This document shows, piece by piece, positions 15,949-42,933 of a DNA stretch of 64,000 bases (the first letter of the stretch is position 1; each line of letters starts with the position of its first letter). The notes beneath the pieces were generated by a model. That model saw only the letters and a list, made by a program, of their open reading frames with translations. It was not told where the DNA came from and did no database searches. A program made the position numbers and the translations under genes. The stretch comes from Eledone cirrhosa (lineage: Eukaryota), in the NCBI GenBank assembly GCA_964016885.1, contig OZ024748.1, forward strand, positions 8,060,001 to 8,124,000, written 5' to 3'.

Positions 15949-18145
15949 TAGATAGATAATATCGGTAGGTAAGTCCTCCGGCGACCTGTTCAGCGGAACT
16001 AGCCTGGAAGTTCTGGTCCAAATGACATCAGAACGAATAGCTAGGATCCCGGAACGTTTGCTGCTGGATGGGCTTATATACATAAACATTTCGGTCGAGG
16101 GTAGGCGGCCTTCATGTTACCACTGCTTAAGTAGGGTCACCTGAGAGCTTAGATAGATAGATAAACAGGCAGGTAGATAAGTAGGGAGGTAGATAGATAA
16201 ATAGATAGATAGATAGATAGTTGCATACAAACCATCCATCAAGTGATCCAACCATACATACATACATACATACATACATACATACATACATACATACATA
16301 CATACATACATACATACATACATACATACATACATAGTTTTGCATTTACATGAATTCAATGCTAGATGAATATATAATGAATAGAAAGAAATTATTTCTG
16401 CTGAAAGGTTAACTCTTCTTAATTGTATTGTGTGAACTATTCAAAGTAGAAAGGTGTTATTGTTATTCTTAACCACTCTAACTATGAAGGAGACATTTTT
16501 ATAACAATCAGTTGGAATTCTAAAACTAAATCTGGATTGAAAATATCCGATAACGGTCGGTGTTCATTGTTATTCAGAAATCGCGTTTAACAAATTGAAT
16601 GATTTAAGTTGGGGTTTATCAAACAAGTATTATATTTTTTTAGTTATGTTTTTATTTTATTCAAGATATTTCATAACGGAAATATTAACTGCCATACTTC
16701 AGCCATGTCAATGGCACGGCCTATCTCTGTTTAAAATTAACTAATTTAGCCTCTTGAGATTGGCAATTTAGCCACGCTGCTCTATTATTCACTCTTAGAA
16801 ATAAGTGGTACCATGCTAAGCAAAAAAAGTCAGTCAACAAATTTTACGATTTATCGAGGCATTTCGATTATTTGAAATTTGAAATGTTGAAATCCAAACA
16901 CAAATTCACTACAATTCATAGTATCAGAGAACCGGCTAAAATTTCCTTAGAGACAGAAAATAAACTATCTTATAGTTTCCTAATAGGGACATAAACTGTA
17001 GTCAGCTACCATTTAGTGTAAAGACATTTCCGAGACACATTATTTTGTATTATATGACAACAATCCACACGGTGTGGGCTTTTTACTCGCCCAGTCTGTC
17101 TTTTTCTCATGTATACCACCTCGTTTCTCTCAGTATTTCATAATGCTGGTATAACTTCCAGTATTTATAATCCCCATCTTTGTCAGGCCTGTGTATGTAG
17201 TCTTTTCATCAAACAATTTCCTATAATTAAGTGTAGTATGTCTCGGTTTCAGCGGCACTTTGGGAATCTGATCTCGAAACTCTCCATGTCTTGTTTTATT
17301 GTCAGCTGTATAAACAGTTCTCAAGATCTTCCTTTGCAGAAGGATTTTAGGGACTTTCAAGTGTCAAAGAATCTTGCTCTTCTCCTAATTACCTTCCGGA
17401 GCTTGTCTCATTACACATTTTATGGATATCAGATAATAAGAATGATTACAGAATCTAGTAAGAGACAAACCTTAAACCTCGTATATATCTATGACGTCAT
17501 GTAATCACATTTACGAATAAAGTAAATTCTAGAAATATAAAAGCAATATTCTTCACCACATGGAACCATCGTTATTCAAGATTTCCGTACAGAAATACAC
17601 AAAAGAGTTCCAGGTTTACCAATCATTTCCATTCCTGGCATTGAAATACCAAAGTAAAACAACATTTATTTCAGTATTTTTCCGACTACTTTCACCTGGA
17701 GATACAATGTAGTTTTGTTTTCACGATGATTGGTCAAATGTAAAAATGAGGCTCTTATTGGAGTGGAGAATAACACAGTCTTTCAAGTGCAGTCGCAGAA
17801 TCATTAATCCTTTGTTTCAGAGAATCTTTTTATAATACCATACTATACATTCCAGAACGAACTACAAACTCAACACGTGTTTCCATTCGTTCTTCTTTTA
17901 ATGTCCCCCCACCTTTAAAATAGTGTCACTATAGCCATTCATTTTAAATTGACATACACCTTCCTTGAGGGTGCCCCGATTGTGATAGTGTCATGACACC
18001 AGGAAGACGGCGCCCCAACTCCCATAGCGTCGTAGTAGCAAAAGAGGAAGATCACTGATTCATATAACAACACTTTTTGAATATCTAATCTGGTTCCTAT
18101 ATTGGAGTTCTGTCTGCCAGTGTCCTTTATTATTATTATTATTGA

Positions 18146-18334
18146 AAGGGCGGTGGATTGGCAGTATCGGTAGAGAGTCGGACACCATGCTTTGAAGCAT
18201 AGAGTTACGTCCCTTTATGATCTGAGTTCAAATCCCGCCGAAATTAACTTTGCCTTTCCTCCTTACGGGGTTGATAAAATAAAGTACCAGTAATGTACTG
18301 GGTAATTTCTGCCCTTGTGCCTAAAATAGAAACA
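18146..18334 (+). mobile_element. SINE family A, full length, inserted in (ATT)n
   Basis: Matches the 33570 copy. TSD ATTATTATTATTGA on both sides. Confidence 0.88.
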
Positions 18335-18989
18335 ATTATTATTATTGACTAGCTATTCAAGTGCTTTTACTGTTTCTGTTCACCTCAATCGTTTATTTCA
18401 TGAGATTCTTCCACTGATTCTTCTAACCGTTCGCCTCTATTATTCGTCTTTGTAATGGAATACAATTAAATATTGCATGCAAACATCGCTAAAGAAAACA
18501 CCGCCTGGACGAAGTGAAAACAACAGAAGACAAAATGAAAGACAGACAAGATTCTATCAGACGTAGAAGGAGAGAGAGAAAGGAAGAAAGAAAGAAAGAA
18601 AGAAAGAAAGAAAGAAAGAAAGAAAGAAAGAAAGAAAGAAAGAAAGAAAGAAAGAAAGAAGGAAAGCCTAAATAAATATATTCTCATTTGAGTGTTAAAA
18701 AATCGCCAAATCAAAAAGAATAGATGATGAATAGTAAGTAGTCGAACATTTAATCAACATAAATCTAAAGATCGGACCAGCTATGTTCATCTTGGAAGTT
18801 GGCAAGAATATGTTACAAGTAGAAAAGACAAGAGAATCAATGAAAGGTGAGAAAACAAACTGTAAGAGAATAAATATTAACAGAAGTAATAAATATGTGT
18901 AGAAATATTGACAGGAATATTAAATAGAAACATCCTACGTCTAATAACAAGCGTAGCAACTGTAGTGTGTGAGAGTAGACAAATACTAA

Positions 18990-19262
18990 CAACTACCACC
19001 ACCATACCATCACTACTATTGCTACTATTACCACCATCACTACTACTACTACTACTACTACTACTACCACTGCTACTACTATTACTACTACTACTACTAC
19101 TACTACTACAACTACTACTACTACTACTACTACTACTACCACTGCTACTACTATTACTACTACTACTACTACTACTACTACTACTACTACTACTACTACT
19201 ACTACCACCACCACCTCTACTAATACCACCACTACCACCACTACCACTACCACTACTATTAC
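18990..19262. repeat. (TAC)n/(CAC)n microsatellite
   Basis: Directly visible. Similar tracts occur at 31246-31500 and 37577-37860. Confidence 0.95.
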
Positions 19263-19929
19263 CGCCATGTTTTATTGGCTGCCACATAAACTAAGAGGTA
19301 GGCGGAGAATTGACAGAGACGTTGGAACGTTAGATAGAATACTTTGTGATATTGGTTCCGATGTTGTGCTCTGAGTTCAAATGTCACGGAAGTCAGCGTT
19401 ACCTTTCAATCTGTTAAGGTCCAAGTCAAGTACTGGGTTACATTCTTCCTTTATATTTCGTCCTCTCTTTCTATCACTCACCCTCTCTTACTTCTCTGGA
19501 AGAAATCTTCTCTGTTCAGATCTGGAAAACTGATGGGTTCCGCGGGCTTTAAAAAAATTGCTTAAGAAACACCGTATCTCACTGCAGCGCCCCTAAGACT
19601 CTACTAAGAGGTCCGGGTGCATGCATACATAACTAAAAGAACACAGTATGGTATAATGCTGAAGGAATTCGCTCTGCAACCATTGAGGACCGAGTTTGAT
19701 CCCACAGTGTGACATATTGAGCAAGTTTCATTGAACATTCCACTGGGTCAACCAAAGGGAATTTGGGTAAACAGAAATTGGTTGAAAGCTCGTTGGGTGG
19801 ACTGTAATTCAATGGACCAGACTTGTCACACACACTCTCATGCTGAAACTCACCGAGAATTACGTTAAGGGTTTACGTGTCTGTGGTATGTGGGTTTACG
19901 TGCCGATGCTGTGTCGACAATTAAGAGAA

Positions 19930-41050: not shown

Positions 41051-41317
41051 GTCATTTTATTTATAATAATTAACTCCGTATTAGCACCACCAACTACAAA
41101 AACAAAGACGGGTGAACTGCACTACGTTGAGTACTCTCCATAATATTACATCAAGATTGACCATACGGAATGACCAATTCTATCCAGTGGTGAACCAACA
41201 AACCTAAATAAATAAATAAATAAATAAATATATATATATATAAATATATATATATATAAATATAAATATATATATATATAAATATATATATATATATATA
41301 TATATATATATATATAT

Positions 41318-41527
41318 AACGAAGGAAATGTGGTAAGGAACCAGGTGGACCATAACGCACCAAAGTACTCAATACTTGAGGTAGTAGAGTGGGTAATAGG
41401 AACCAGTAAGACCCCGACAGCTGAGCTCAAGCCGTTTCGACGGCTAATTCTGGACTAAAAAGATTTTAGTCCAGAATTAGCCGTCGAAACGGCTTGAGCT
41501 CAGCTGTCGGGGTCTTACTGGTTCCTA
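41318..41527. mobile_element. P1 fold-back, copy d
   Basis: Arms of about 65 bp around CTAAAAAGATTTTAG; in (TA)n. Confidence 0.7.
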
Positions 41528-42035
41528 TATATATATATATATATATATATATATATATATATATATATATATATATATATATATATATATATATATATAT
41601 ATATAAGATGACATGACAAAGTCTGTTTGTACCTTCACTGATCAATATACAAAAGATCTAGATATCATAGATACCAGGTGTTTGATAAGAAATACCAGCA
41701 TGTTACAAGAGGATGACATTGACTCTAGGAACAAACCCAAGATAGTTTGGAATCTCCCTATGTAAACGGACAATAAGTGCAAACAACACAGGCCTGATAA
41801 TGTAGTTATGTACGGCAGAGACTAGCATGAATGCCAATTTATTGTTGCTACAAGGAGACCAAAACCACCATGAAGGAAATTGTATAAATAACGAAATATA
41901 TCCCGATTTAAATATTGAAAATGCTCGAACGGGATCAATGACAGCTAATGAGGAGGACATAATTGTTATAGGAAGTTTGGGTTGGATAACACCACAGCTG
42001 GGTTAGGGTTTGGACCACAGCTGAGAGAACATGTT

Positions 42036-42463
42036 GGAGGAGGAGGAGGAGGAGGAGGAGGAAGAAGAAGAAGAAGAAGAAGAAGAAGAAGATGATGATG
42101 ATGATGATGATGATCATGATCATGATGATCATGATGATGATGATGGTGATGATGTAGTAATTGAAATTTAAAGAGCAGTAGCGATAATGTTACTTGTAGT
42201 AGTAGTAGTAGTAGTAGTAGTAGTAGTAGTAGTAGTAGTAGTAGTAGCAGCAGCAGCAGCAGCAGTAGTAGTAGTAGTAGTAGTAGCAGTAGTAGCAGCA
42301 GCAGCAGCAGCAACAGTAGCAGTAGTAGTAGTAGTAGTAGTAGTAGCAGCAGCAGCAGTAGCAGCAGCAGCAGCAGCAGCAGCAACAGCAGCAGCAGTAG
42401 TAGTAGTAGTAGTAGTAGTAGTAGTAGTAGTAGTAGTAGTAGTAGTAGTGGTGGTGGTGGTGG
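42036..42463. repeat. Compound trinucleotide microsatellite (GGA, GAA, GAT, GTA, GCA, GTG)
   Basis: Directly visible. Confidence 0.95.
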
Positions 42464-42933
42464 TAAAATCTGCAGCAACAATCAGCAGTATTAAAGAGAG
42501 TTTGTAGCAGCAATAATGGAAGCCAAGATGGTTGTTAGTGGCAACGGCAACAATGGAAGGAGCCAGGACATAAAGTAAAGAACCGGTGGAGTGGTGCAGT
42601 CGTCAATATATATTGTAACAGTGGCAATAATAATAATAATAATAATAATAATAATAATAATAATAATAATGATTTCTTTATTAACCACAAGGGTTTACAT
42701 AAAGTAGACATTAAGGACAGTGCAGAACAATGCAGGACGGTACAAATGGGCATTTCTGCGTGTAAAAAAAACAAAAACAGAGGATGTAACAAAAATAACA
42801 ATGAAAATAACAATGAAAAATTCCCCAATAGGGGGGAGACTTCGGAGGGACATTTGTGGAGAAAGCCCAGTGAAAAGCCACAATGACCCTGACCACCAAG
42901 GCAAGTGCCCTCTCCCAGTTTTCCACCTTTAGT

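Follow-up and report, generated by a model that had tools for sequence, protein, structure and literature searches.

Repeats of the window

The window, the whole 64,000-bp stretch analysed here, comes from the octopod Eledone cirrhosa (assembly GCA_964016885.1, 3.0 Gb; contig OZ024748.1, positions 8060001-8124000). It holds an array of a long interspersed element (LINE) with Tx1-like features and copies of an abundant short interspersed element (SINE). An earlier note on this DNA had proposed that the two share a 3′ terminus and an ATT target, and that the LINE mobilizes the SINE. The three full-length LINE copies lie head to tail on the minus strand, with mutual identities of 99.3-99.6%. The features of the array are as follows.

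42671..48701, minus strand: Tx1-like LINE copy 3, full-length, 6,031 bp; ORF1 48488-46389, ORF2 46353-42934
49166..55194, minus strand: Tx1-like LINE copy 2, full-length; 99.6% identical to copy 3
55650..61679, minus strand: Tx1-like LINE copy 1, full-length; 99.3% identical to copy 3
42626..42692, minus strand: 3′ terminus of LINE copy 3; predicted hairpin AACC-CUUGU-GGUU, AATAAA, GAAATC, (ATT)15
61707..61932, minus strand: 3′ untranslated region (UTR) fragment of the sister Tx1-like subfamily B, ~89% identical to other B copies
48722..49114, plus strand: 392-bp spacer between LINE copies; Dong/R4-like 3′ end on the strand opposite to the LINE, TAA tail; identical copy at 55216-55607

Open reading frame (ORF) 1 of the LINE encodes 700 aa, with a CX2CX4HX4C zinc knuckle visible in the translation. 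This knuckle, a feature of the Tx1 clade, was not scored by Pfam. ORF2 (1,138 aa as queried) matched the Pfam families Exo_endo_phos (apurinic/apyrimidinic endonuclease, APE), RVT_1 and zf-RVT. Among solved structures, its closest match was human L1 ORF2p (179 bits, E 8e-52), followed at a distance by R2 (79 bits, E 2e-21). Proteins named TX1 or YTX2 by their sources scored 319-345 bits, as compared to 179 bits for human L1, and the best named relative was a protein of Argonauta hians (74% identity). In a quick tree, ORF2 fell with the TX1/YTX2-named proteins in a group of 30 rows with a support of 99, separate from the CR1, RTE and Dong-like rows of the same genome. Judged from its two ORFs, its APE, reverse transcriptase (RT) and zf-RVT domains, and an RT nearer to that of L1, the LINE is a member of the L1 group (L1 plus Tx1). 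The label Tx1-like is likely rather than certain because the tree included no named L1. The family of the window, A, has at least 150 genomic copies that are 99-100% identical, many with intact frames, and is therefore very young.

Two identical 392-bp spacers, each with an inverted Dong-like 3′ end, part the three LINE copies of the array (42626-61930), which could have arisen by tandem duplication or by 3′ read-through. We take the spacer element to be Dong on the basis of a C-terminal motif; Pfam gave no match. Many other copies of the LINE in the genome are also in tandem, with a spacing of ~6,060 bp. Tx1-like and Dong-like elements repeatedly occur in each other's tails in opposite orientation (ATT versus TAA), forming mixed arrays (e.g., L191-L210).

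The SINE (~190 bp) is short and non-coding, and has a high copy number, many 5′-truncated copies, a simple-repeat tail and target duplications of 9-20 bp. Lengths range from 184 to 205 bp, with a short form of ~185 bp and a long form of 205+ bp that has an extra internal segment. A B-box-like sequence, GTTCAAATCC, lies at element position 78 of the copy at 33569..33754. A pattern search for an A box found no match in the SINE, in which TGGCAGTATCGG resembles the A-box consensus, and neither ARAGORN nor Rfam gave a hit. The head of the element may be transfer RNA (tRNA)-like. An exact SINE tail occurs 170,012 times in the genome, and a control pattern 0 times. Median divergence from the majority sequence of each age class was 1.6% (18 copies), 7.1% (43 copies) and ~11% (10 long-form copies); 3 of the 18 copies of the youngest subfamily were at 0.0%. 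Three loci of the window illustrate the element.

18146..18334, plus strand: full-length SINE, short form; CCTTGTG at 18313; 14-bp duplication ATTATTATTATTGA at 18132-18145 and 18335-18348
20558..20778, plus strand: two 5′-truncated SINE pieces; the second (20652-20778), of the long form, ends CCTTGTG-CCTATAGTA-GAAATC, then (ATT)6
33569..33754, plus strand: full-length SINE of the young subfamily; 14-bp duplication ATTAATTACATGCT at 33550-33563 and 33755-33768

The SINE and Tx1-like LINEs share a 3′ end

The 3′ ends of the three LINE copies, at 42692, 49187 and 55671 (minus strand), read CCTTGTG-GTTAATAAA-GAAATC-(ATT)14-17. The SINE at 20757 has the same arrangement with its own spacer, and most other SINE copies end in CCTTGTG-CCWAAAGTA-GAAACA-ATT. 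The sister fragment at 61729 reads CCTTGTG-GCCAATAAAT-GAAATC, with a spacer of 10 nt. The end common to the SINE and the intact Tx1-like LINE of the window is therefore CCTTGTG-N9/10-GAAA-(ATT)n. Every terminus quoted in the earlier note is present in the sequence, including the 9-nt spacing at 20757, although the tail at that site has six ATT units and not five. Its two ATT-starting SINE duplications, ATTATTATTATTGA and ATTAATTACATGCT, are real. The 5′ flanks it had described as ATT runs (2910, 11590, 20551, 27930 and 28300) contain ATT, and some are degenerate.

The pattern CCTTGTG-N8-10-GAAAYMATTATT has 173,469 exact matches in the genome, whereas its reverse, used as a control, has 1. The last 30 nt of the two SINE forms aligned with all five Tx1-like ends compared, with shuffle p values of 0.0005-0.008 that are optimistic, as the motif was spotted before the test. 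By contrast, they matched 0 of 7 non-Tx1 LINE ends from CR1, RTE, Dong-like elements and one unclassified LINE (best p 0.099). Based on the genome-wide counts and these alignments, the shared end is not due to chance, and it is exclusive to Tx1-like elements among the 12 LINE ends. We rejected the CR1, RTE, Dong-like and unclassified LINEs as donors of the tail, as their ends fail to match that of the SINE.

To survey the carriers of the motif, we used 40 evenly spaced 10-kb samples (400 kb), which yielded 64 matches, 60 in SINEs and 4 in Tx1 elements, versus 0-5 in a Markov control. Among 190 distinct SINE-type tails, from 255 records of the same genome, 173 were attached to the body of a SINE, 13 came from Tx1 elements, and the other 4 were stubs or rearranged pieces. 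No third motif-bearing family was present among these 64 and 190 carriers; the surveys covered ~1.2 Mb of the 3.0 Gb, much of it anchored on chosen motifs.

Seven Tx1-like subfamilies, with ORF2 identities of 57-99%, carry the motif: A, B, B2 and C with ATT tails, and D, E and F with mostly TATC tails. Genome-wide, motif-bearing LINE ends numbered 9,418 of the ATT type and 3,539 of the GGCAAATAAA type, the two patterns partly overlapping. ORF2 was found upstream of the motif at 23 of 30 loci in one set and 24 of 30 in another, and the identity of the subfamily ORF2s to the protein of the window was roughly 50-97%. The 3′ UTRs differ widely, yet all terminate in CCT(T/C)GTG-G..AATAAA..GAAA. By these alignments, a motif retained between divergent UTRs and two types of tail is conserved independently of the tail repeat. 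More distant L1/Tx1-like relatives were taken from metagenomes (80 loci, with identities mostly of 23-33%); a recognizable end was present in 14 of them, with AATAAA plus poly(A) and no CCTTGTG in the printed ends. These data indicate that the motif is not general to the L1/Tx1 group.

The ages of the two elements overlap: the young SINE has a median divergence of 1.6%, and the UTRs of Tx1 A, B and C have values of 1.5, 3.8 and 3.9%, respectively.

Rare SINE/Tx1 chimeras are fused exactly at CCTTGTG in both directions (L157, L321-L324, L326-L328): 3 plus L157 one way, and 4 of 6 matches in the reverse search. They were set aside as support, being rare and explicable by microhomology. The element start GGCGACCTACG, which follows many Tx1 tails, had been considered a sign of another clade; it proved to belong to a sister Tx1-like family, as its 5′ end. 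The CORE-domain motif CCTTGGG (PMC5786205; papers are cited here and below for the portions of their text that were available) is an unlikely source of the CCTTGTG of the SINE by position, the latter being 3′-terminal, ~90 nt past the B box.

A predicted hairpin at the shared end

The shared motif folds as a predicted hairpin with the loop CUUGU (CUCGU in subfamily D). The predicted stems are AACC/GGUU in A, GGCC/GGCU in B, GGCC/GGCC in B2, AGCC/GGCC in C, UGCC/GGCA in D and F, CGCC/GGCA in E, and UGGC/GCCA or UGGC/GCCU in the SINE. The loop is invariant in the three SINE age classes and in 6 of 7 LINE subfamilies, and the neighbouring bases change in pairs. In 12 representative ends, which are mutually related and were picked by hand after the motif had been seen, 43 of 48 stem cells were paired, and 3 of the 4 pairs had two-sided changes. 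This covariation score was reached by 0 of 500 shuffles, and no slid register came near it. Unprompted, RNAalifold returned the inner three pairs of the same helix. According to single-sequence folding, the hairpin has a probability of 0.65-0.96 in Tx1 A, B2 and C at every window size. In L2 elements, recognition that is loop-specific and tolerant of stem changes has been established by assay (PMC4176376). On the present predictions, a stem-loop is the best interpretation of the shared motif.

A hairpin resembling the 3′ one lies in the 5′ UTR of the LINE, directly upstream of ORF1 (48530-48505, minus strand; also L106, L118, L128 and L158). It reads GGGC-CUUGU-GCCC in the sister family and GGGU-UUUGU-ACCC, a compensated form, in the family of the window; some copies have a changed loop. 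The predicted resemblance suggests that the same protein may contact both ends of the LINE RNA. Some Tx1 insertions are just ~30 nt long and comprise the hairpin and end motif (L129, L130, L136 and L146).

Insertion sites and target duplications

Under a strict rule, in which a SINE duplication had to start within 3 bases of the tail and measure at least 9 bp, 21 of 53 SINEs in the evenly spaced samples had a duplication, as compared to a mean of 3.3 and a maximum of 8 in 200 swapped-flank controls. In assembling the SINE set, 10 of 136 candidates without a SINE alignment and then 4 of 126 that were too short or chimeric were left out. Unambiguous duplications were 9-20 bp long (median 14-15) and started at the first tail base. 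Of the truncated Tx1 copies, 8 of 30 had an ATT-starting duplication of 11-22 bp by a looser rule, many junctions being uncertain. By contrast, none of 20 truncated CR1 copies had a duplication of at least 9 bp (of 30 loci, 10 lacked a junction in range; Fisher p 0.0004 versus the SINE). ATTAT occurred in the 5′ flank of 32 of 53 SINEs and 2 of 20 CR1 copies, against a background of 7%.

The Tx1-like lineage is target-specific, with family A using ATT runs and sister families using (TATC)n. Intact young Tx1 A copies, picked from the top matches, were directly behind at least 6 ATT units in 20 of 20 cases, 8 of them behind another Tx1 end. The SINE directly followed a Tx1 tail at 15 of 60 loci and a CR1 tail at 1 of 30 (p 0.017). 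At locus L130, a 17-bp duplication of non-repeat sequence is present in three copies, with a Tx1 stub of 29 nt and a complete SINE between them, indicating that the two insertions used the same pair of cuts. Locus L140 is similar, its third duplication copy having decayed.

In the whole genome, just 35 SINE tails lead into (TATC)3. Of the 30 examined, most keep ATTAT in the target and, by eye, ~5 have pure TATC flanks (L370, L374, L377, L380 and L393). L374 and L360 contain copies of one 1.5-kb host repeat (92.8% identical), and the SINE of the former and a family D Tx1 of the latter occupy the same TATC site in it. The pure-TATC sites suggest that the SINE may occasionally use TATC-type enzymes and normally needs tail-target pairing. 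TATC-type sister families occur at L335-L364; family D copies are nearly identical and look young, and family F has other tails.

An active CR1 family has 2,926 exact ends followed by ATT, and intact 945-aa frames; the ATT tail alone is therefore not diagnostic of a partner. The repeat after RTE ends is (GAT)n; after Dong-like ends it is (TAA)n, on the strand opposite to the (ATT)n of the SINE. The CR1 family (L071-L100, L161-L190) ends in a GTGC/GCAC hairpin plus (ATT)n, without target duplications, and its 3′ UTR holds an ATTATT site that SINEs have entered in L094, L162 and L190.

Other features of the window

The remaining SINE copies identified in the window are listed here.

528..906, plus strand: short-form SINE, then long-form SINE
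11198..11589, minus strand: three SINE pieces nested in one another's ATT tails
15838..15948, minus strand: 5′-truncated SINE with a 12-bp duplication, ATTATCTATCTA
27935..28298: two SINEs in opposite orientation, at 27935-28119 (plus) and 28164-28298 (minus)
35747..36411: two SINEs, long form 35747-35902 (plus) and short form 36263-36411 (minus)
61950..62119, minus strand: long-form SINE, its ATT tail ahead of the sister fragment and the LINE array

At 1131-1247, 13644-13683 and 19286-19450 are SINE-like pieces that have diverged further and are related to the main SINE in its head. Decayed fragments of other LINE-like elements flank the SINE at 20757 (19950-20520, plus; 20800-21400, minus). 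A 54-bp tandem repeat of ~42 units (28509-30760), which reads as a 742-aa open frame, is probably a minisatellite.

Discussion

Overall, the SINE and the Tx1-like lineage share a terminal motif, a class of insertion site, a range of duplication lengths and overlapping ages, and the motif is absent from the other LINEs sampled. These data argue strongly that the Tx1-like lineage is the partner of the SINE, whether its recognition is tail-dependent or relaxed, and make it probable, on sequence comparison, that mobilization depends on the tail. The likely partner is an ATT-targeting branch of a multi-family Tx1-like lineage rather than specifically the copy in the window. The comparisons that the earlier note had proposed bear this out: no other sampled LINE matches the SINE tail, the targets and duplication lengths of the SINE and Tx1 overlap while those of CR1 do not, and the ages overlap. 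Its claim that Tx1 drives the SINE into ATT sites is thus supported, although the ATT tail carries no weight by itself given the (ATT)n of CR1.

In the mechanism that we propose, ORF2 protein would bind, on either LINE or SINE RNA, the predicted 3′ hairpin with its CUUGU loop and the GAAA that comes after it. The APE endonuclease would nick the AAT strand of an ATTAT or (ATT)n site, as the flanks suggest, and the AUUAU end of the RNA would pair with the nicked strand and prime reverse transcription right after GAAAC(A) or GAAATC. A second nick 9-20 bp downstream would yield duplications of the lengths observed. An older member of the lineage probably donated the SINE tail, which would later have dropped AATAAA and exchanged one stem pair but retained the loop. 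The (TATC)n-targeting sister families keep the predicted hairpin but seldom carry the SINE, a likely reason being that the AUU end of the SINE does not pair with their target. In its fullest form, for which we consider the case evenly balanced, the proposal is that this animal Tx1 lineage is stringent, reading a minimal five-base loop, CUUGU, on a swappable stem across families with different microsatellite targets, and that it powers the octopod SINE explosion. The pair would then be the first SINE and Tx1 element with a shared tail, and hairpin recognition and site choice (tail-target pairing plus endonuclease) would be two separable locks.

Several observations weigh against tail-dependent mobilization by this lineage. 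The bases common to the SINE and the LINE are only CCTTGTG and GAAA(Y), ~12 in all, as compared to 50-100 nt in published SINE/LINE pairs (PMC3472496, PMC3747384). The middle and old SINE subfamilies, at 7% and ~11% divergence, are older than most sampled Tx1 copies. Beyond the manner in which the covariation rows were chosen, 5 of the 12 ends do not form the outer, fourth stem pair. In the youngest SINE, the probability of the closing pair of the hairpin is 0.00-0.11 in windows of at least 40 nt, where a more stable helix competes with it, and reaches 0.9 only in a window of 32 nt; the hairpin is also lost in longer windows in an old long SINE copy and in Tx1 B (at least 80 nt). Rare stem variants within Tx1, viewed as the first 100 of 278, are mostly uncompensated and give no covariation support; they are as expected of neutral decay and add nothing. 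A clean duplication is absent from 22 of 30 truncated Tx1 copies and 32 of 53 SINEs. Finally, 42 of 53 SINE tails have 1-2 ATT units, as compared to a median of 5 in 30 Tx1 copies, and intact Tx1 A copies lie in long ATT runs, whereas SINEs lie in minimal ATTAT sites. The target logos of the SINE and Tx1 therefore overlap without being identical.

Some of these points would fit a relaxed Tx1 enzyme that takes any RNA ending in AUU repeats, with CCTTGTG/GAAA being a relic of capture or serving another role, such as 3′ processing near AATAAA. The disfavoured hairpin of the youngest SINE is consistent with this, as is the way the SINE tracks target class, with 35 of ~170,000 tails before (TATC)3 despite the identical loop of family E; the identical spacers of the array could likewise reflect read-through primed at a downstream ATT run. 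We nevertheless consider relaxed recognition unlikely, as the loop is invariant while the flanking bases covary. In addition, CR1 RNA also ends in AUU, yet Tx1-type duplications were found in 0 of 20 CR1 copies, a weak argument in that CR1's own enzyme would dominate. That a LINE other than Tx1 is the partner is, taken as a whole, about as improbable. Most of that small share falls to an unsampled or extinct LINE of another ATT-targeting clade, in which case the Tx1 match would reflect two users of the same sites. A family making up less than ~1% of SINE-type tails could have escaped the portion of the genome covered, and the search for RT families considered the best 150 of 118,944 candidates. 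Set against this, the motif carriers included no third family, the triple duplications are common to the SINE and Tx1, and the youngest SINEs need a currently active partner, such as Tx1 A with its near-identical copies. We accordingly rate this explanation as improbable.

The two other candidates are each very improbable. Mobilization by the active CR1 would agree with the predominance of CR1 and RTE in published pairs (PMC3747384), CR1 and L2 serving most known SINEs, and with the abundance and intact frames of the family. It is disfavoured by an end that fails to match the two SINE forms (p 0.39 and 0.63), by the lack of duplications and by the rarity of ATTAT in its flanks. Dong/R4-like elements also use TAA/ATT runs; their ends very often adjoin the same runs as the SINE (30 and 9 of 254 run flanks), and Octopus vulgaris has highly active Dong-R4 elements (PMC13282606, Table 1). 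Their (TAA)n tails, however, are on the opposite strand, and neither of two Dong-like ends matched the SINE end at p<0.05 in either orientation. Tail-dependent mobilization by the Tx1-like lineage thus remains the preferred reading.

Tail-specific recognition has its textbook exception in the L1 group. In a survey of 58 SINE/LINE pairs, only 3 were of the L1 clade, from maize/sorghum and Chlamydomonas (PMC3472496, PMC3747384); in the available text of the review, Tx1 appears in two phylogeny passages and not in the pair table (PMC3747384). The pairing was called unusual in the earlier note, and a Tx1-driven SINE does have one precedent, drawn from targets only: the crocodilian SINEU was paired with Tx1-Mar because the two prefer the same target and overlap in age (Kojima 2015, PMC4494074). 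The octopod SINE is likewise tied to a Tx1-like partner through shared targets and overlapping ages. SINEU differs in having small nuclear RNA heads, poly(A) tails and a Mariner target, with no non-LTR (long terminal repeat) family resembling the 3′ half of SINEU-1, whereas the octopod element has a putatively tRNA-like head, a terminal motif in common with its LINE and microsatellite-like ATT sites.

Stringent L1-clade pairs are ZmSINE2/3 with LINE1-1_ZM in maize and SINEX-3_CR with L1-1_CR in Chlamydomonas (Ohshima 2012, PMC3472496). As is predicted for the octopod pair, an L1-group 3′ hairpin with a conserved loop and a variable, compensated stem is common to LINE and SINE. They differ in being from plants and algae, with poly(A) or poly(T) ends and 50-80 shared nt; the octopod pair involves an animal Tx1-like lineage, ~12 shared nt, a microsatellite tail and target specificity. 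UnaL2 and ZfL2 use the mechanism proposed for the octopod pair, in which a 3′ stem-loop is recognized by its loop and leads into a short tandem-repeat tail (Hayashi 2014, PMC4176376), but belong to the L2 clade and were established by assay, whereas the octopod case is in the L1/Tx1 group and is inferred. Kibi, at (TC)n, and Koshi, at (TTC)n, are APE-type Tx1 LINEs that also insert in specific simple repeats; the octopod targets are (ATT)n and (TATC)n, and the available text mentions no SINE partner for Kibi or Koshi (PMC4494074).

Abundant tRNA-derived octopod SINEs are themselves known. The element described here may be OK, OR1 or OR2 (Ohshima and Okada 1994, cited in PMC4824008 and PMC4758252) or a relative; these were compared by description only, and the portions available name no partner LINE for them. 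In Octopus vulgaris, SINEs account for 11.6% of the genome (PMC13282606); they have been described as an octopus-specific expansion (PMC8967140), and the text available from these two papers names no engine for them. The 2026 annotation of O. vulgaris reports active L1-Tx1 and SINE families, with neither 'partner' nor 'mobiliz' in the available text (PMC13282606). A SINE-Tx1 tail pair is likewise absent from the available portions of PMC4758252, PMC4824008, PMC8967140, PMC10294476, PMC3531059 and PMC5786205. We found no shared-tail SINE-Tx1 pair in the literature; Repbase, Dfam and subscription papers, which were outside the search, may record one.

If correct, a tail- and target-specific Tx1 partner in an animal would support stringent recognition as ancestral in the L1 group. 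The intact, very young donor LINE and an element of ~22 bases make the pairing directly testable, and a compact RNA tag that steers an RT to a defined microsatellite would be of interest for RNA-templated gene insertion. Compared with the systems above, the SINE and the Tx1-like lineage represent a well-supported candidate for a tail-specific partnership: a known kind of system, with an unusual partner clade and a minimal recognition element.

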